Assembly: GCA_965222115.1 (NCBI GenBank)
Contig: CBDCTJ010000007.1
Span: 2,624,001 to 2,688,000, forward strand
DNA: 64,000 nucleotides
Source of the DNA: Planctomycetota bacterium
GTDB taxonomy: Bacteria > Planctomycetota > PLA2 > JAEUHO01
Direction: 5' to 3'
The position numbers and the translations under genes are program-made. Shown here in pieces: positions 6,968 through 63,291 of the stretch (positions are counted from its first letter, which is position 1; the number at the start of each line of letters is the position of its first letter). The notes under the pieces were generated by a model. That model made no database searches. It was given only the letters and a program-made list of their open reading frames with translations, and was not told the DNA's origin.

Positions 6968-8986
6968 GTGCGACAGGCCAAGCCTGGACAAGGAGGAACT
7001 CATGACGTGACGAAACCTTGTGATGGAGCCCAACGGGTAACCAATCCCGTCCGGCCAAGCTGACCGAGCAGCCGGAAGCAAACCTAGCGCGCTCTGTGGG
7101 TAACTGCGGGGTGTGAAGCACTAGGCAAGCGTGTGTGCGGGCTGTGTGATTGAGCCTCGAAATTCTTATGACTGCGGTGGCCGACGATGTTCTTTGATCG
7201 GAAGGCACCATCGGAGACGAGCGTGTAGGTCTGCTCCCTCCGGCCCGCCGGGGTCTATGAGCAGGGCACGTACACAAAGGGGCTTCCCCAGGAACCTGTG
7301 AGATCCCATGCTGTCCTTCGAGAACTCGGCGCGGAAGGGCCGTAGACACTTCCAGCAATACGCAGCACGAGGCACACGCTTGTGTTGGGTGCGAAACAAG
7401 CGTGTGAAACGAAGGTACGGCGTCGCGAAGTCACCCGAGCGGCGCTGGACGCAGGTGGGAAGTCGGAGCGCTCCGTAGTACCGATGAACGGGGGGAACCT
7501 TTCACCAAGGGACCCTCGGGAGGGATGGGAGCGCCGCTATGTGTACTCCGTAGGAGGGAACCATGACAGAGATCCCAAGCTTTGATCCCGTGTTACCGAA
7601 ACTCCGACGGATCGCAATGCTTGCGAAGCAATCCCCGGAGATGGCGTTCACGTCGTTGAACTCCGCTCTGGACATGACGTTACTGCGTGAAGCGCATCGG
7701 CGAACGCGCAAAGGAGGCGCAACGGGCATAGATCGCCAGACGGCGCAGGATTACGCGAAGGACCTGGAGAGCAATCTCCAGAGCCTGCTAAACCGTGCCA
7801 AGTCCGGCGACCGTTACCGCGCACCTCCTGTGCGACGTGTGCATATTCCCAAGGACAAGCCCGGGGAGACTCGGCCCCTGGGGATACCGACGTTTGAGGA
7901 CAAGATCCTCCAACGCGCGGTGGCCATGATTCTGGAATCCATCTACGAACAGGACTTTGACTCCTGCTCGTACGGTTTCCGGCCTGGCCGCTCGGCACAC
8001 GATCTGTTGGCTGCACTTCGTAACTCGATGATGAACATGAACGGCGGGTGGGTGCTTGAAGCCGATATCCGCAAGTTCTTCGACAGCGTCGATCACGCGC
8101 AGCTAATGGACGTGCTTCGCAAGCGGGTGCGAGATGGTGTGATTTTGCGATTGATTGGCAAGTGGCTAAATGCAGGTGTCATGGAGGATGGCCGCGTGAG
8201 CTATCCCAAAGGAACTGGTACGCCGCAAGGCGGAGTGATCTCCCCCGTGTTGGCCAACATCTTCCTCCATGAAGTGTTGGACACCTGGTGGAAAGAAGAT
8301 GTCGCCCCTCGCATGAAGGGGGAGGCGCATCTCTTTCGTTACGCAGATGACTTCGTGATTGTATTCGCTCGTGAAGCGGATGCACGGCGTGTGATGGACG
8401 TCGTTCCAAAGCGCTTCGACAAGTACGGCCTTGCCATCCACCCAGATAAGACTCGCTTGGTGCGATTCAAACGCCCGCGGCACTACGACTCCGATCATGA
8501 TTCGGAAACGTTCGACCTGTTGGGCTTTACGCATCTATGGAGTCGATCCCGTAAGGGATACTGGGTGATTCGGCAGTTGACCGCACGAAGTCGGTATCGC
8601 CGCGGTCTGACGCGGATGTCCAAGTGGCTCCGCTCCGTCCGCCACCAACCTGTGCATTGGCAGCGTACAAAACTGGCACAAAAACTCCAGGGGCATTACG
8701 CCTACTACGGGGTGACTGGCAATACGCGTCGGCTGCACAACTTCCGGCGGGAAGCCATACGGCTTTGGAGGTACTGGCTGTGCCGCCGTTCACAGCGCGC
8801 CAAGATGCCATGGGATCGTTTCAACCGACTCCTACAGCATCACCCCATTCCACCATCACGTGTCACGCGCTCGATCTATCGCGCCACCTAATCGGCGACC
8901 CACATAGCGAGGAGCCGGATGCGGTAATCCCGCACGTCCGGATCTGTAGGGGGGCTGGGGAGGGAAACCTCCCCGGCCTACCCGAC
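6968..8986 (+). mobile_element. Complete group II intron (endonuclease-less bacterial type)
   Basis: 5' end GTGCGAC at 6968. Domain V GAGCCGGATGCGGTAATCCCGCACGTCCGGATC and domain VI ending CCTACCCGAC at 8986. EBS1 TCTTTG (7191-7196, in a CGAT/ATCG stem-loop) is complementary to the last 6 nt of the 5' exon, CAAAGA (6962-6967). Confidence 0.9.
7563..8891 (+). CDS. ltrA: Group II intron reverse transcriptase/maturase
   Basis: Motifs RPLGIPTFEDKILQ, SYGFRPGRSAH, ADIRKFFD, GTPQGGVISPVLANIFLH and RYADD, then a maturase X domain. No C-terminal HNH domain. Confidence 0.95.
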   Translation: MTEIPSFDPVLPKLRRIAMLAKQSPEMAFTSLNSALDMTLLREAHRRTRKGGATGIDRQTAQDYAKDLESNLQSLLNRAKSGDRYRAPPVRRVHIPKDKPGETRPLGIPTFEDKILQRAVAMILESIYEQDFDSCSYGFRPGRSAHDLLAALRNSMMNMNGGWVLEADIRKFFDSVDHAQLMDVLRKRVRDGVILRLIGKWLNAGVMEDGRVSYPKGTGTPQGGVISPVLANIFLHEVLDTWWKEDVAPRMKGEAHLFRYADDFVIVFAREADARRVMDVVPKRFDKYGLAIHPDKTRLVRFKRPRHYDSDHDSETFDLLGFTHLWSRSRKGYWVIRQLTARSRYRRGLTRMSKWLRSVRHQPVHWQRTKLAQKLQGHYAYYGVTGNTRRLHNFRREAIRLWRYWLCRRSQRAKMPWDRFNRLLQHHPIPPSRVTRSIYRAT

Positions 8987-9611: not shown

Positions 9612-9754
9612 CGGATGCTCCTGGATACACATTTGACGATGCCTAGTCTATTTGTAGAAATTCCAGGCGAATATCGGGCGCCTATTCACGAAATTCGGCG
9701 TCGTGAAACTCGCATTTGGTGCCAGGCCTAGAGTCGCAGAATTCGTGTTCTATT

Positions 9755-9933
9755 CGTTACCCGTTACCCGAATCCCGTCACCCGGACTCAAGTGTGATCG
9801 CTCAATGATCGATTCGCGCCGGTTCGTGGACGTGGACGTGGACGTGGACGTGGACGTGGACGTGGACGTGGACGTGGACGTGGACGTGGACGTGGACGTG
9901 GACGTGGACGTGGACGTGGACGTGGACGTGGAC
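9755..9933 (+). repeat. Repeat module: heptamer run + block X + (GTGGAC)18
   Basis: CCCGTTA CCCGAAT CCCGTCA, then CCCGGACTCAAGTGTGATCGCTCAATGATCGATTCGCGCCGGTTC, then 18 GTGGAC units (9826-9933). Confidence 0.95.
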
Positions 9934-9935
9934 GA

Positions 9936-10310
9936 TCAAGGCTCGTCGAACCTTCGTTGAAGCACGAACAACATAGCGGCGGATCGCTCTAGTATGTTCA
10001 TGACACCTGAGATTGCGGCCTCGCTGGAGAGTCCGAGTAGTAGAGCCTGATGTAGAGCGGCAATGGCCTCGGTGCGTTCGGCGTGTGCGATGTCGTACGC
10101 TTTGCGTTTCTCGGCTGGCCGTCGTTTCGAGAGTCCTTCGGCGACGTTTAGGGCAACGCTGACACTTGCGCGCCTGAGCTGATCTGCGAGCTTTGCGTGG
10201 CCCCGAGGCCATGCCGCGCAGGTTGCTACGCACTCGACTGCCGCGGCCTGCGAAGCACGGTAGACATCGAAGCGTTTGAGGTACTCGAGCGTGGAAGTCG
10301 CGCTTGTCAT
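9936..10310 (-). CDS. Four-helix bundle protein, subfamily A copy 1 (TIGR02436 / 23S rRNA IVS protein / Avd-like)
   Basis: 124 aa. Family signature FDVY...LADQLRRASVSVALNVAEG...YDIAHAE..E, with GGAG upstream of the ATG. Three close paralogs in the window. Confidence 0.88.
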   Translation of the reverse strand: MTSATSTLEYLKRFDVYRASQAAAVECVATCAAWPRGHAKLADQLRRASVSVALNVAEGLSKRRPAEKRKAYDIAHAERTEAIAALHQALLLGLSSEAAISGVMNILERSAAMLFVLQRRFDEP

Positions 10311-10467
10311 GATGGAACTCCGGCGTGAAAGGAGCGCAAGCCGTTTGCTCGCGTGTGCCCTTCGCAAAAGAGCCGAAGGCGAAGGAGGGCGCACGCGAGC
10401 GGACCGTACGAACAAGGTCCCGCGTGGACTCGGCAACCCGTTCCATGCTGGAGTTCCATCACAAGCG
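10301..10467. ncRNA. Conserved structured leader A (fold-back covering RBS and start codon), copy 1
   Basis: Outer arms 10301-10323 and 10448-10467. Inner 15-bp stem 10347-10361 / 10386-10400. Conserved in four copies. Whether it acts as RNA or ssDNA is not established. Confidence 0.6.
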
Positions 10468-10510: not shown

Positions 10511-10740
10511 CCCGAATCCGTCACCCGTTACCCGAATCCCGTCACCCGGACTCAAGAGTGAGCGTCCGATAATCGATTCACGCAGGCTCGTGGACGTGGA
10601 CGTGGACGTGGACGTGGACGTGGACGTGGACGTGGACGTGGACGTGGACGTCAAGAGCAAATGGCCTTGCCATTTGCGCAAAGACCCTGAGTAAGCACCA
10701 GCGGATCTTTGATCCGCGCGGTGCGCATCGAAGGGTGGTC
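10511..10740 (+). repeat. Repeat module: heptamers + X + (GTGGAC)10 + hairpin block Y
   Basis: GTGGAC x10 at 10590-10649. Y = GAGCAAATGGCCTTGCCATTTGC..GACCCTGAGTAAGCACCAGCGGATCTTTGATCCGCGCGGTGCGCATCGAAGGGTGG. Confidence 0.95.
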
Positions 10741-44542: not shown

Positions 44543-44716
44543 CCCGTCACCCGAAACCCGAACTCAAGTGTGAGCGTCCGGTGATCGATTCGCGCCAGTT
44601 CGTGGACGTCAAGAGCAAATGGCTTTGCCATTTGCGCGAAGACCGTGAGTAAGCACCAGCAGATCTCTGATCCGCGCAGTGCGCATCGATCGGTGGACGT
44701 GGACGTACAAGTGGAC
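44543..44716 (+). repeat. Repeat module: heptamers + X + (GTGGAC)1 + Y + trailing GTGGAC units
   Basis: CCCGAACTCAAGTGTGAGCGTCCGGTGATCGATTCGCGCCAGTTC GTGGAC GTCAAGAGCAAATGGCTTTGCCATTTGC...GTGGACGTGGACGTACAAGTGGAC. Confidence 0.92.
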
Positions 44717-44782: not shown

Positions 44783-44881
44783 TATAGTCGTCTCTTCTCT
44801 TTAGCGTTCTGTAGGGACGCCGCCCGACTGCATGCAAGTCCGAGTGAGCTCCTGCGATTTCTAATCTGCGCAGAACGCACC

Positions 44882-45036
44882 GAACTGCTTGCTGTATGAC
44901 TTGAAAGTGCACGGGGCAACACCCTTTGGGAAGTGCTACGTGCATGCCCCACTCGCCACGAGGGCGAGGGCACGCACTCGCATTCCCGCGGGTGTTTCCT
45001 CGTGGAGCTTCTCGTATGTCATACAGCAAACAGTTC
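44882..45036. ncRNA. Conserved structured leader B, copy 1
   Basis: GAACTGCTTGCTGTATGAC (44882-44900) pairs 18/19 with GTCATACAGCAAACAGTTC (45018-45036). Nested stems AACACCC/GGGTGTT, GTGCATGCCC/GGGCACGCAC and CTCGCC/GGCGAG. Confidence 0.6.
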
Positions 45037-45402
45037 TCGGTTACTTCCACGGCGGGTCGGCTTGAACGATTCGATGTGTATCGAATCGCACGTCGTGTCG
45101 CGGCCAGTATTCACCAGCTCTGTGGATCGCTGCCTCGAGGCAACGCCGAGCTTGCAAGCCAAGCTCGACGAGCCTCTACAGCCGTCGTCCTCAACATCGC
45201 GGAGGGTATCGGCCGCGCTGGCGCGGGCGCCAAACACCGCTCGTTCTCAATTGCTCGCGGTGAGTGCGTCGAGGCCGCCGCGGCACTCGACCTCATGCAG
45301 GCGATGGGCATTATCACAGGAGCCAGCGCCGCACCGACGCTTCATGATCTAGATCGCGTCCGCGCGATGCTGAATGCGCTGATCCGCCGCTGGCGGGAGT
45401 GA
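45016..45402 (+). CDS. Four-helix bundle protein, subfamily B copy 1
   Basis: 128 aa. FDVY...LASQARRASTAVVLNIAEG...FSIARGECVE, with GGAG 8 nt upstream. Confidence 0.88.
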   Translation: MSYSKQFSVTSTAGRLERFDVYRIARRVAASIHQLCGSLPRGNAELASQARRASTAVVLNIAEGIGRAGAGAKHRSFSIARGECVEAAAALDLMQAMGIITGASAAPTLHDLDRVRAMLNALIRRWRE

Positions 45403-45475
45403 GGCACGCCCATTCGCAGCGAACCTCGCAAAAAGTGCCGGGTGTAATTTTGCACCGGTTAGCGCACTCCCGCCA

Positions 45476-45844
45476 CCCGTCACCCGTTCCCCGAAACCCG
45501 TCACCCGGACTCAAGTGTGAGCGTCCGATAATCGATTCGTGTCGCGTTCAAAACGTGGACGTGGACGTGGACGTGGACGTGGACGTGGACGTGGACGTGG
45601 ACGTGGACGTGGACGTGGACGTGGACGTGGACGTGGACGTGGACGTGGACGTGGACGTGGACGTGGACGTGGACGTGGACGTGGACGTGGACGTGGACGT
45701 GGACGTGGACGTGGACGTGGACGTGGACGTGGACGTGGACGTGGACGTGGACGTCGAGAGCAGATGGGCGAAGCCCGTTTGCACGAGACCCTGAGCAAGC
45801 ACCAGAGGATCTGTGATCCGCGCGGTGCGCATCGAAGGGTGGAC
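45476..45844 (+). repeat. Repeat module: heptamers + X + (GTGGAC)33 + Y
   Basis: 33 units at 45555-45752. Y hairpin variant GCAGATGGGC-GAA-GCCCGTTTGC. Confidence 0.95.
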
Positions 45845-47835: not shown

Positions 47836-48210
47836 TCATGGAACGTTGAATCGCCGCTGGAGGACGAACAACATCGCGGCGGTTCGCTCCAGCGTGTTCA
47901 TGACTCGCGAAACTTTGAGTTCACTCGAGAGACGGAGTAGGAGCGCGTGATGTAGAGCCGCGATGGCTTCGGTGCATTCGGCGTGTGCAATGTCGTAGGC
48001 CCTGCGCTTCTCGGCTGCCCGCCGTTTCGATAGGCCTTCGGCGACGTTTAGGGCAACGCTGGTGCTTGCGCGCCTGAGTTGATCGGCAAGTTTTGCGTTG
48101 CCTCGTGGCCACTCGGCGCAGATGGCGACGCACTCGACTGCCGCGGCCTGCGAAGCACGGTAGACGTCGAAGCGTTTGAGGTACTCGAGCGTTGAAGACG
48201 CGCTTGTCAT
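47836..48210 (-). CDS. Four-helix bundle protein, subfamily A copy 2
   Basis: 124-aa close paralog of 9936-10310. Confidence 0.88.
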   Translation of the reverse strand: MTSASSTLEYLKRFDVYRASQAAAVECVAICAEWPRGNAKLADQLRRASTSVALNVAEGLSKRRAAEKRRAYDIAHAECTEAIAALHHALLLRLSSELKVSRVMNTLERTAAMLFVLQRRFNVP

Positions 48211-48366
48211 GATGGAACTCCAGTTGAAGGGAACGCAAGCCGTTTGCTCGCGTGTGCCCTTCGCAAAAGAGCCGAAGGCGAAGGAGGGCACACGCGAGCG
48301 GGTCGTACAAACAGAGCCCGCGTGACAGCGACAACTCGTTCCCAAACTGGAGTTCCATCACAAGCG
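48201..48366. ncRNA. Conserved structured leader A, copy 2
   Basis: CGCTTGTCATGATGGAACTCCAGTT / AACTGGAGTTCCATCACAAGCG. Perfect inner stem GCTCGCGTGTGCCCT/AGGGCACACGCGAGC. Confidence 0.6.
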
Positions 48367-48417
48367 GCGCCTGCGCGTACCGAACGCGCTATGGCAACCG
48401 GCGGTGCTGTCCAAGGC

Positions 48418-48651
48418 CCAGTCACCCTTCACCCGTTACCCGTTACCCGTAAACCGAATCCCAGACTCAAGGGTGAGCGTCGGATGGACGATTCGCGCCG
48501 TCTTTACGTGGACGTGGACGTGGACGTGGACGTGGACGTGGACGTGGACGTGGACGTGGACGTGGACGTGGACGTGGACGTGGACGTGGACGTGGACGTG
48601 GACGTGGACGTGGACGTGGACGTGGACGTGGACGTGGACGTGGACGTGGAC
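48418..48651 (+). repeat. Repeat module: heptamers + X + (GTGGAC)24
   Basis: 24 units at 48508-48651, no Y block. Confidence 0.93.
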
Positions 48652-48673
48652 GTGGAATCAGATTGGGTGCATC

Positions 48674-52764: not shown

Positions 52765-52810
52765 CTCAAGTAGCGTAATAGTCGTATGCGTTCGGTACCG
52801 ATGGACCACC

Positions 52811-52965
52811 GAACTGTTTGCTGTGTGACGTGAACGCGCACTGGGCAACACCCTTTGAGAAGTGCTACGTGCATGCCCCATTCGCCATGAGGGCGAGGGC
52901 ACGCACTCGCATTCCCGCGGGTGTTTCCTCGTGGAGTTTCTCGTATGTCACACAGCAAACAGTTC
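52811..52965. ncRNA. Conserved structured leader B, copy 2
   Basis: GAACTGTTTGCTGTGTGAC (52811-52829) is the exact reverse complement of GTCACACAGCAAACAGTTC (52947-52965). Confidence 0.62.
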
Positions 52966-53331
52966 TCGATTACTTCCACGGCAGGTCGGCTTGAACGTTT
53001 CGACGTGTATCGAATCGCACGCCGTGCCGCGGCCAGCATTCACCAGCTTTGTGGATCCCTGCCGCGAGGCAACGCCGAGCTTGCAAGCCAAGCTCGACGA
53101 GCCTCTACAGCCGTCGTCCTCAACATCGCCGAGGGCATCGGGCGCGCTGGCGCAGGCGCCAAGCACCGTTCGTTCTCCATCGCTCGCGGCGAGTGCGTCG
53201 AGGCCACCGCGGCACTCGACCTCATGCACGCGATGGGAATCCTTACAGGCGCCCACGCCGCGCCAACGCTTCGCGACCTTGACCGCGTTCGCGCAATGTT
53301 GAACGCGCTCATCCGGCGCTGGAGGGAATGA
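52945..53331 (+). CDS. Four-helix bundle protein, subfamily B copy 2
   Basis: 128-aa close paralog of 45016-45402. Confidence 0.88.
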   Translation: MSHSKQFSITSTAGRLERFDVYRIARRAAASIHQLCGSLPRGNAELASQARRASTAVVLNIAEGIGRAGAGAKHRSFSIARGECVEATAALDLMHAMGILTGAHAAPTLRDLDRVRAMLNALIRRWRE

Positions 53332-56339: not shown

Positions 56340-56363
56340 CCCCAGTGAGCTTCCTCGCGGTTG

Positions 56364-56465
56364 CCCGTTACCCGTGATGCGCGGCCCGACACCCGTTACC
56401 CGATACCCGGACTCAAACGTGAGCGTACGATGGTCGATCTGTGCAGCGCGCATCGAACGGTGGAC
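56364..56465 (+). repeat. Degenerate repeat module (heptamers + X fused to tail of Y)
   Basis: CCCGTTACCCGATACCCGGACTCAAACGTGAGCGTACGATGGTCGAT...GCGCATCGAACGGTGGAC. Confidence 0.85.
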
Positions 56466-56467
56466 GG

Positions 56468-56842
56468 TCAGGGACCGCCGAATTTGTGTTGAAGCACGAA
56501 CAACATGGCGGCGGCGCGTTCTAGGGTGTTCATCGCCTGCGACGTTGCGCGCTCGCTTGCGATTCCAAGCAGCTGGGCGTGATGCAGCGCAGCGATCGCT
56601 TCGGTGCACTCGGCGTGGGCGATGTCGTATGCCTTGCGCTTCTCGGCGGGGCGGCGCTTCGCCAGCCCCTCTGCGACGTTGAGTGCAACGCTGGTACTAG
56701 CGCGCCGGAGTTGATCGGCGAGTTTTGCGTGGCCTCGAGGCCATGTTGCGCAGAGCGCGACGCACTCGACTGCTGCTGCCTGCGAAGCACGGTAGACATC
56801 GAAGCGTTTGAGGTAATGGAGCGTGGAAGACGCGCTTGTCAT
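56468..56842 (-). CDS. Four-helix bundle protein, subfamily A copy 3
   Basis: 124-aa close paralog of 9936-10310. Confidence 0.88.
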   Translation of the reverse strand: MTSASSTLHYLKRFDVYRASQAAAVECVALCATWPRGHAKLADQLRRASTSVALNVAEGLAKRRPAEKRKAYDIAHAECTEAIAALHHAQLLGIASERATSQAMNTLERAAAMLFVLQHKFGGP

Positions 56843-57000
56843 GATGGAACTCCAGCGTGAAGGGAACGCAAGCCGTTTGCTCGCGTGTGCCCTTCACAAA
56901 AGAGCCGAAGGCGAAGGAGGGCACACGCGAGCGGGTCGTACAAAAAGTCCCCTCGTGACAGCGACAACTCGTTCTCAAGCTGGAGTTCCATCACAAGCGC
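56832..57000. ncRNA. Conserved structured leader A, copy 3
   Basis: GCGCTTGTCATGATGGAACTCCAGC / GCTGGAGTTCCATCACAAGCGC. Confidence 0.6.
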
Positions 57001-57041
57001 AGCCCGCGCGTAACGGTCGCGCATGCCTTGCCCGCGGCCCG

Positions 57042-57345
57042 CCCGGAATCCGTCACCCGTATCCCGTCATCCGGACTCAAATGTGGACATCCGATGATCG
57101 ATTCACGCCGGTTCGTGGACGTGGACGTGGAGAGCAGATGGGCGAAGCCCATTTGCGCGAAGACCCTGAGTAAGCACCAGCGGATCTCTGATCCGCGCAG
57201 TGCGCATCGAAGGGTGGACGCAAATTGGTGCCGGGCGCGAACGTGCGTGCCCCGCGACCCGTTCCCCCGTACCCCGAGCCCCGATTCCCGTCACCCATCA
57301 CTCGTTACCCGACACCCGGTCGCCAGTGTGAGCGTTCAATGAACG
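57042..57345 (+). repeat. Repeat module: heptamers + X + (GTGGAC)2 + Y, followed by a second degenerate heptamer + X block
   Basis: GTGGAC x2 at 57115-57126. Y ends at 57219. Second heptamer run from 57251. Confidence 0.9.
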
Positions 57346-57454
57346 ACTTGCAGTGCAAATTGCCACCGGGAGCGAACTCCGCGAATTGCGCTCATTTTGA
57401 GTCGTTCCCCGTCATCTGCCCGGGTAGAATCCGCTTTTACACGGAGAATGCGCC

Positions 57455-62760: not shown

Positions 62761-63135
62761 TCACGGTTCGTCGAATCGGCGCTGAAGTACGAACAACATG
62801 GCGGCGGATCGCTCCAAGCTGTTCATGACGAGTGAGATTGCGGCTTCGCTGGCGAGACCAAGCAATAGCGCGTGGTGTAGAGCGGCAATGGCCTCGGTGC
62901 ATTCGGCGTGTGCGATGTCGTAGGCCCTGCGCTTTTCGGCTGGCCGCCGTTTCGATAGGCCTTCAGCGACGTTTAGCGCAACGCTGGTACTTGCGCGCCT
63001 GAGTTGATCGGCGAGCTTTGCGTGGCCGCGAGGCCATGCGGCGCAGATTGCGACGCACTCGATCGCCGCGGCTTGCGAAGTACGGTAGACATCGAAGCGT
63101 TTGAGGTACTCGAGCGTAGAAGAGGCGCTTGTCAT
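62761..63135 (-). CDS. Four-helix bundle protein, subfamily A copy 4
   Basis: 124-aa close paralog of 9936-10310. Confidence 0.88.
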   Translation of the reverse strand: MTSASSTLEYLKRFDVYRTSQAAAIECVAICAAWPRGHAKLADQLRRASTSVALNVAEGLSKRRPAEKRRAYDIAHAECTEAIAALHHALLLGLASEAAISLVMNSLERSAAMLFVLQRRFDEP

Positions 63136-63291
63136 GATGGAACTCCAGATGAAGGGAACGCAAGCAGTTTGCTCGCGTGTGCCCTTCGCAAAAAAGCCGA
63201 AGGCGAAGGAGGGCACACGCGAGCGGGTCGTACAAAAAGAACCCGCGTGAAAACGACAACTCGTTCCCAAGCTGGAGTTCCATCACAAGCG
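63126..63291. ncRNA. Conserved structured leader A, copy 4
   Basis: CGCTTGTCATGATGGAACTCCAG / CTGGAGTTCCATCACAAGCG plus the inner 15-bp stem. Confidence 0.6.

Follow-up and report, generated by a model that had tools for sequence, protein, structure and literature searches.

A hairpin leader conserved over the ribosome-binding site of multicopy four-helix-bundle gene cassettes in a planctomycete, and its possible role in translational control

The stretch of DNA considered here (hereafter, the window) spans 64 kb, positions 2624001-2688000 of contig C7, in a planctomycete assembly of 4.55 Mb and 7 contigs. It carries four copies of a gene for a 124-aa four-helix-bundle (4HB) protein, which we designate type A, and each copy adjoins a structured element that we call leader A. 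All four units lie on the minus strand. The genes occupy 9936..10310 (copy 1), 47836..48210 (copy 2), 56468..56842 (copy 3) and 62761..63135 (copy 4), and their leaders occupy 10301..10467, 48201..48366, 56833..56999 and 63126..63291, respectively. An earlier sequence-only reading of the window had reported a fold-back in four copies at these places, and inverted 13-mer pairs are indeed found there, with the minus strand as the coding strand. The window also holds representatives of a second, type B, version of the unit on the plus strand: a 128-aa 4HB gene at 45016..45402, ~43% identical to type A at the protein level, is headed by a leader B at 44879..45041, and a further leader B lies at 52808..52970 (limits by analogy, with its 5'-arm motif at 52808) before a gene that starts at 52945.

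All four type A proteins of the window match both PF05635, described as "23S rRNA intervening sequence protein" (55.7-64.7 bits; cut-off 33.8), and TIGR02436, "four helix bundle protein" (52.1-63.5 bits; cut-off 24), with E-values of 6.3e-15 and 6.5e-14 for copy 1. By sequence profile, the nearest relative of solved structure is XCC0516 of Xanthomonas campestris (PDB 2GSC; E 4.8e-4). Avd is the DGR accessory protein, and we take the 4HB protein to be its relative; like XCC0516 and Avd, it belongs to a family of small, basic helical-bundle proteins, but in contrast to the DGR accessory Avd no DGR is found next to the cassettes. PF05635 genes are widespread in the phylum, occurring in 103 of 201 sampled genomes and often in many copies. 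A literature search, judged from titles and abstract openings, returned no leader or antisense RNA of PF05635, TIGR02436 or IVS-protein genes.

Genome-wide, leader A is present in ten full copies, every one directly 5' of a type A gene. Both BLAST and a covariance model (R1) recovered no full leader without a gene in this genome, only the ten gene-linked copies and one additional, truncated type A unit whose break falls exactly at the apex of the inner stem P3 (described below). The lack of gene-less copies rules out a MITE- or REP-like dispersed palindrome. Protein identity within type A is 83-100%, there are eight type B paralogs, and every reading frame is intact (type A 10 of 10, type B 8 of 8). 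When a collection of genome contigs was scanned with a peptide pattern for further type A genes, 45 stretches were flagged and none was confirmed. The type A protein profile detects relatives in 7 of 29 genomes within the family, this one counted, and a protein search yielded just two close metagenomic relatives (~80%). The leader itself is more restricted: its DNA has a match in 0 of 60 relatives, and model R1 detects it in 0 of 28 relatives within the family. An exact 16-mer scan of metagenome contigs gave at least 118 loci; those listed lack the protein, and their match to the leader extends no further than ~20-43 nt. Contigs from four DNA runs, compared with copy 2, comprise short pieces and paralog cross-mapping without joints, and do not constitute independent evidence.

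The units have the appearance of inserted cassettes. At either end of every unit stands a module, the two in direct orientation, composed of (GTCCAC)n (2 to ~30 units), a ~47-nt core and (NACGGGT)n. For copy 1 the upstream module lies at 10511..10652 and the downstream module, in the same minus-strand orientation after the gene, at 9745..9932 (both with approximate limits). No inverted repeat encloses the ORF; strong inverted repeats are confined to the leader, and the pairs that do span the ORF are 70-86% complementary, which is the level expected by chance. Copy 3 sits between two conserved host genes of the opposite strand that are adjacent, co-directional and 100-172 nt apart in eight of the nine relatives showing both, and that are separated by 1115 nt here; the copy 3 cassette is therefore an insertion. 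Orientation relative to host neighbours is not fixed, copy 1 being co-directional with them and copy 3 opposite. By a rough count that relied on a crude and noisy GC3 filter for ORFs, a convergent gene follows the stop codon at a distance of 130-190 nt in six of the ten type A units. Neither a recombinase nor a transposase is found in or beside the cassette, and a group II intron accounts for the reverse-transcriptase gene near copy 1, with six other RT_1 matches elsewhere in the genome.

Leader A is closed by a long helix, P1, made of 7 bp, a 3-nt bulge and a further 13-14 bp; in copy 1 its 5' arm lies at 10448-10467 and its 3' arm at 10301-10323. Allowing two mismatches, the P1 13-mer occurs eight times in the form of four inverted pairs, against 1.35 occurrences expected, and eight was reached in 0 of 100 shuffles. 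The 3' arm contains the SD (GGAG, at -11 to -8) and the start codon, which in copy 1 is the ATG at 10308-10310, in the bulge. The sequence-only reading had proposed that the fold-back buries the ribosome-binding site, and in silico this is so: the unpaired probability of the SD is at most 0.003 in 10 of 10 copies. It had further noted that the bulge can be placed as ATG or as TGA, and the two registers are equivalent and both present in the ensemble. By partition function, the A of the start codon is unpaired with a probability of ~0.5 and its U and G with ~0.9 in most copies, and the AUG is mostly unpaired in seven of the ten leaders. P1 encloses P3, a 15-bp stem slightly extended at its apex, together with two small hairpins that vary and the weaker helix P2. 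The 15-bp inner stem was likewise described correctly from the letters, being perfect in copies 2-4 and interrupted by one C.A on the mRNA strand in copy 1 (10347-10361 with 10386-10400, minus strand); P1 of copy 1 also holds one A.C on the mRNA strand. The fold energy is -89.2 kcal/mol (z -4.4) for copy 1 and -100.7 kcal/mol (z -9.3) for copy 2, the best-paired copy, with 0 of 200 shuffles as good.

When the ten copies are aligned, the structure drawn in the sequence-only reading pairs 93.7% of 587 cells (96-99% in P1), compared with 32-46% when partners are slid by 1-3 columns. One of its parts fared poorly: on the mRNA strand, the proposed GGGAACG/CGTTCCC helix is unbroken in just two of ten copies at pair 34-148 and in five of ten at pair 37-145. 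The compensatory changes that it reported in the stems hold for one pair (columns 30-155, U-A in copy 2 and C-G in eight others), but double pair-preserving changes amount to 3 of 59 pairs in one sequence each, a score matched by 1 of 500 shuffles, and within-family covariation of leader A is thin. A conserved ORF running through the leader is ruled out, since one-base indels occur at three places between copies. An Rfam search, which had been named as a check because a match would remove the novelty, gave no match on the window at gathering thresholds; relaxing the threshold to E<=10 over 1.1 kb around copy 2 returned chance microRNA and snoRNA rows only, and among 12 relatives' loci one tRNA was found and nothing else. 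No terminator was detected at the leader A hairpin. A scan for sigma-70-like promoters on both strands around copies 1 and 2 found 0 sites, in a phylum whose promoters may differ, and consequently neither an mRNA start nor an antisense start could be located.

Variation within the leader was also compared with that of the adjoining genes. At the 38 fourfold-degenerate sites of the type A genes pi is 0.354, from which the copies are judged to be old, and it falls to 0.09 and 0.07 at codon positions 1 and 2, indicating that the protein is also constrained. Across leader A, pi is 0.041 in the 5' arm and 0.032 in the 3' arm of P1, 0.042 in the P3 stem, 0.10 in the P3 apical loop, 0.114 in P2 and 0.248 in the small hairpins between the stems (the P4-P5 multiloop region). 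P1 and P3 are thus ~8-fold less variable than the synonymous sites of the same genes, whereas the multiloop is near neutral. Because constraint alternates in this manner over 20-30 nt, the pattern speaks for purifying selection on the long helices, and a strong one, rather than for gene-conversion tracts. The claim of an unannotated structured element is therefore sustained, given an element that is absent from Rfam, tied to one gene family and under strong purifying selection.

These figures bear directly on two alternatives. The first holds that the hairpin is a functionless relic, a MITE-like palindromic insertion duplicated along with its gene, and it would accommodate both the descent of all copies from one unit and the weak covariation within the family. 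It is difficult to see, on such an account, why drift should affect the region between the stems when the stems themselves vary ~8-fold less than synonymous sites; a like pattern in type B, the lack of independent copies and the presence of analogous hairpins with compensatory changes in other genera also stand against it, and we consider it very improbable. The second would make leader A a metabolite riboswitch or an RNA thermometer, as might be suggested by a branched 5' structure that hides the SD. Here the distribution of constraint is the reverse of what a sensor would predict: the junction and small branches are the least conserved parts (pi 0.248) and the long helices the most, which is evidence against a ligand pocket in the junction. 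Moreover, no Rfam family matches, type B is an unbranched rod, and a G+C-rich 21-bp closing helix, belonging to a fold with an energy of -80 to -100 kcal/mol, would probably not melt at growth temperatures, an argument that draws on established examples of RNA thermometers. We regard this explanation as extremely improbable.

The type B leaders and the hairpins of related genera place leader A in a wider context. Leader B folds as an unbranched rod of ~165 nt (-103 kcal/mol, z -6.5) whose outer stem joins sequence from upstream to codons 2-9 and to the G of the ATG. In one folded copy the A and U of its start codon occupy a small internal loop, and six of the eight copies have a mostly paired AUG in the ensemble. 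At one stem position three copies have A-U and three have U-A, the 3'-side change being an Asn/Lys codon difference. As in type A, the leader is far less variable (pi 0.013-0.058) than the fourfold sites of its genes (pi 0.350, 60 sites). Just 3' of leader B, third-position diversity is near neutral (0.28-0.31 over codons 11-40), so no extended conserved antisense-promoter region is visible there. In two related genera, genes that we designate type C carry a ~85-nt hairpin with the SD in its 3' arm and an end 5-6 nt before the ATG, and compensatory changes are seen at 7 of its 28 pairs among nine sequences. By eye, P3 and P1 of leader A seem to be echoed in the core of this hairpin and in its CUCCAG/CUGGAG base. 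The strong hairpin seen in a third genus (G013) stops ~12 nt short of the SD and leaves it uncovered. Judged by sequence and predicted fold, types B and C appear to share the design of leader A while differing from it in sequence.

We also considered which strand the pairing is maintained on, a matter of some consequence because a tolerated A.C mismatch on the mRNA strand is a G.U pair on its complement. Among derived wobble-type sites in the well-supported stems of leader A (P1 and P3) and leader B, scored on the mRNA strand, 14 are of A.C type and 3 of G.U type, whereas for the corresponding transitions the fourfold sites of these genes give counts of 18 and 23 (Fisher p 0.009), with the proviso that the event counts are small and the copies related by descent. 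Taken separately on its own mRNA strand, each type shows the same tendency (6 versus 2 in A, 8 versus 1 in B). With A and B placed on opposite strands, the bias thus goes with the gene rather than with the strand of the chromosome. Folding energies concur: the antisense MFE is the lower in 26 of 27 copies (A 10/10, by a mean of 5.0 kcal/mol; B 7/8, 3.1; C 9/9, 9.5), and with DNA parameters the complement folds better in 17 of 18 (A 10/10, B 7/8). Base composition would have favoured the mRNA strand, on which G+T is 0.525 in A and 0.516 in B. A symmetric count, restricted to wobble positions that stack on helices shared by the two strands, gives G.U versus A.C on the mRNA strand as 9/34 in A, 4/23 in C, 0/7 in the G013 type and 22/17 in B, where three consensus G.U pairs lie on the mRNA strand, and type B is ambiguous as to strand. 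The antisense bias is not general, as a phylum-wide sample of 30 PF05635 loci indicates: the sense strand folds better upstream in 21 of 30, and the antisense strand downstream in 21 of 29. For the leaders at issue, the strand opposite the gene preserves the pairing slightly better.

This has implications for the suggestion, made in the sequence-only reading, that leader A is a cis-regulatory RNA; the same reading also offered it as a candidate RNA or ssDNA partner of the protein. The burial of the SD in silico and the selection on the stems speak for it, but given the tolerance of A.C and the folding energies that favour the complement, a purely cis-acting mRNA leader is not the best fit. In its strict form this explanation would treat the leader as a site for protein binding or processing in the mRNA, either for autoregulation by a 4HB pentamer or for cleavage by RNase III as in the rRNA IVS, with no antisense RNA involved. 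Several observations recommend it: in A and B alike, the SD is fully sequestered and the AUG falls where the helix is interrupted; the helices that are conserved are long and near-perfect and keep their sequence as well, as one would expect of a site recognised by protein; and each type of protein has its own type of hairpin. An RNase III gene is present in the genome (C7:1354397-1354771), and the family's namesake elements are excised by that enzyme at a 28-bp stem (PMC4990558). Nonetheless, the changes best tolerated in an mRNA helix, those of G.U type, are the rare ones (3 versus 14 sites, against a neutral 23 versus 18), and the complement folds better in 26 of 27 copies. We accordingly think it unlikely that the leader acts purely in cis.

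A different way to accommodate the strand pattern is to place the function at the level of DNA, as a hairpin in the ssDNA or cDNA of the mRNA-complementary strand that serves the copying, insertion or maintenance of the cassette and overlaps the ribosome-binding site only incidentally. The better pairing of the non-coding strand with RNA and DNA parameters alike would be in keeping with this, as would the status of the cassettes as insertions and the break of the truncated copy exactly at the P3 apex. So, too, would their placement on the chromosome. All 18 4HB genes lie at 2.27-2.85 Mb of C7, around the cumulative GC-skew maximum at ~2.77-2.785 Mb, which by the usual skew rule we infer to be the terminus. 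Relative to the inferred direction of replication, 17 of the 18 genes and 24 of 26 module cores have one orientation, A head-on and B co-directional, even as their orientation to neighbouring genes varies. Against these points, the strand bias tracks the gene and not the replication strand, gene-less hairpins are lacking, and the cassette brings no recombinase or transposase. Two PF01797 (Y1) matches exist elsewhere on C7, of which only one is clear, and a link to a Y1 transposase was rejected because the flanks of that gene are unrelated to the cassette; an IS200/IS605 or REP-RAYT hairpin was set aside because neither match is a cognate Y1 (HUH) transposase flanked by hairpins akin to the leader. 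The replication polarity is also unconfirmed in relatives, where local GC skew, a noisy measure with only two values at |z|>=2, places 9 cassettes co-directional and 7 head-on (n=16), and the polarity seen here could stem from direct duplications and an inversion across the terminus. On balance we view a DNA-level element as a serious rival, though an unlikely one. Its boldest version, in which the hairpin would work as an ssDNA or cDNA fold-back recognised or primed at copying and the 4HB cassettes would be new hairpin-dependent mobile elements, tied in orientation to replication, accumulating at the terminus and served by their own protein (the Avd relative) as a nucleic-acid chaperone, we rate as decidedly unlikely.

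Further parallels come from known systems. Integron attC sites carry GTTRRRY-type R''/R' core boxes and lie 3' of cassette ORFs. Leader A resembles them as an imperfect hairpin with an extrahelical bulge, better folded on the non-coding strand and belonging to cassette-like units; unlike them, it lies 5' of one gene type, to which it is specific. Identity with attC was rejected on motif and position, as the 3' arm has no GTTRRRY-type box and the element precedes its gene. The rRNA IVS offer a second comparison. In Coxiella burnetii, the 23S IVS comes with S23p, and RNase III removes it at a 28-bp stem that contains a single mismatch and a single bulge (PMC4990558). Leader A is like an ORF-bearing IVS in its PF05635 protein, in a long, near-perfect stem with one bulge beside the gene and in its selfish-looking, inserted character, and is unlike one in that it is not in rRNA, both its arms lie 5' of an ORF that is outside the stem, and the flanking repeats are direct, not inverted. 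An rRNA IVS as such was rejected: the window contains no rRNA family, relatives have the two protein genes that surround copy 3 side by side, and the loop does not hold the ORF.

Insertion sequences offer the nearest parallel. In IS10, RNA-IN/RNA-OUT pairing and fold-back inhibition limit the transposase. In IS200, the tnpA 5'UTR forms an SD-occluding stem-loop and is met by the antisense RNA art200 (PMC4513863). Leader A is similarly part of a multicopy inserted element, in which an inverted repeat over the ribosome-binding site is predicted to give both an SD-occluding mRNA stem and an opposite-strand hairpin, and its paired region is near-identical among copies of one type. It differs in that the cargo is a 4HB protein and not a transposase, that the hairpin is larger (167 nt, branched) and that the antisense hairpin is in this case predicted from sequence. 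By analogy, leader A may work most like the translational control regions of insertion sequences.

We therefore favour, tentatively and with somewhat less than even confidence, the reading that leader A is the control module of a lineage-specific, multicopy, inserted PF05635 cassette, and that it most likely limits translation at the RNA level. The 167-nt inverted repeat straddles the ribosome-binding site and the start codon. In an mRNA that includes both arms, the SD would be locked in a 21-bp helix, as it is in silico, and the fold-back would silence the transcript; to be translated, such an mRNA would have to be processed, for instance by RNase III, or to begin within the leader. Transcription of the complementary strand would yield a stable hairpin antisense RNA (-85 to -97 kcal/mol) over the same ribosome-binding site, which could act on all copies of its type. 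It is the better preservation of this complementary hairpin that suggests an antisense RNA, and a trans-acting pairing partner of this kind would hold sequence constant and so might explain why P1 and P3 remain near-identical despite the divergence of synonymous sites. By analogy with its excision of the rRNA IVS, RNase III would be the obvious candidate processor of either RNA. Control could thus be exerted by the fold-back, by the antisense hairpin or by both, in the style of IS10 and IS200.

To our knowledge, PF05635 4HB genes outside DGRs have no known function. What the present analysis contributes is the recognition that such a gene can have, at its ribosome-binding site, a dedicated hairpin under tighter constraint than the protein, that paralog types and genera appear to keep this design while changing its sequence, and that the whole unit is an inserted cassette. 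There is also a note of caution for the study of similar elements, in that a leader which buries the ribosome-binding site, when read from the coding strand, may be selected on the opposite strand. Should the ssDNA or cDNA reading prove true, it would provide a function for the large orphan PF05635 family. An antisense RNA, cleavage by RNase III and binding of the hairpin by the protein are the handles that leader A offers on the control, and perhaps the spread, of these selfish-looking genes.

At copy 3, a 1115-nt gap between two genes (window 56340-57454) is filled by the cassette and its modules. The two flanking genes are co-directional and lie 100-172 nt apart in 8 of 9 relatives, and the cassette gene is antisense to both. 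A truncated type A unit at C7:2,443,700-2,444,000 of the same genome retains the module, the spacer and, of the leader, only its 5' half; the unit breaks off precisely at the 15-bp stem's apex, beyond which the sequence is unrelated.

Each four-helix-bundle (4HB) cassette is preceded upstream by arrays whose unit number varies. Flanking modules with such arrays occupy window 10511-10652, 9745-9932, 48417-48660 and 45469-45600, among others, and the (GTCCAC)n arrays within them are highly variable in length, ranging from 2 to about 30 units. The second kind of array is built of (NACGGGT)n heptamers, which match the G-quadruplex consensus when the minus strand is read; of 13 regular-expression hits in the window, 11 are at places associated with modules. 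In several units the hexamer arrays are abutted by a further repeat of about 85 nt with two small hairpins (window 10653-10740 and 44600-44690, with other copies); the intergenic regions there are therefore patchworks in which four or more types of repeat are combined. We also note a group II intron about 950 nt from copy 1 (window 7041-8986; Rfam RF02005, 113 bits, and RF00029, 42.5 bits), with a reverse-transcriptase ORF of 442 aa at window 7563-8891. The genome as a whole contains seven RT_1 matches.

Type B 4HB genes carry a leader of their own, distinct and rod-like, and two such units lie in the window (44879-45402 and 52808-53331). At four places in the genome, a type A and a type B gene are divergently paired at a distance of about 500-600 bp, with one module common to both. 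Codons 41-50 of the type B genes (e.g., window 45136-45165) form a block of low third-position diversity, 0.075 vs. about 0.3-0.5 in the rest.

All 18 4HB genes (10 type A and 8 type B) and 26 module cores are confined to a stretch of approximately 620 kb of contig C7 that surrounds the maximum of its cumulative GC skew. The region recorded is C7:2,274,560-2,848,043, and the window (C7:2,624,001-2,688,000) lies inside it. The maximum itself falls at about 2.77-2.785 Mb, where we infer the replication terminus to lie. Relative to the inferred direction of replication, 17 of the 18 genes and 24 of the 26 cores share one orientation, the exception among the genes being the type A unit at C7 2,744,323. 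With respect to the assembly, contig C6 (48,116 bp) has a G+C content of 39.7%, compared with 55-59% in the other six contigs, and may represent foreign or mis-binned DNA.

Of 201 genomes sampled across the phylum, 103 carry the 4HB family. Relatives G026 (12 matches), G003 (5), G013 (5), G030 (17) and G047 (22), among others, each have an expanded subfamily of their own.
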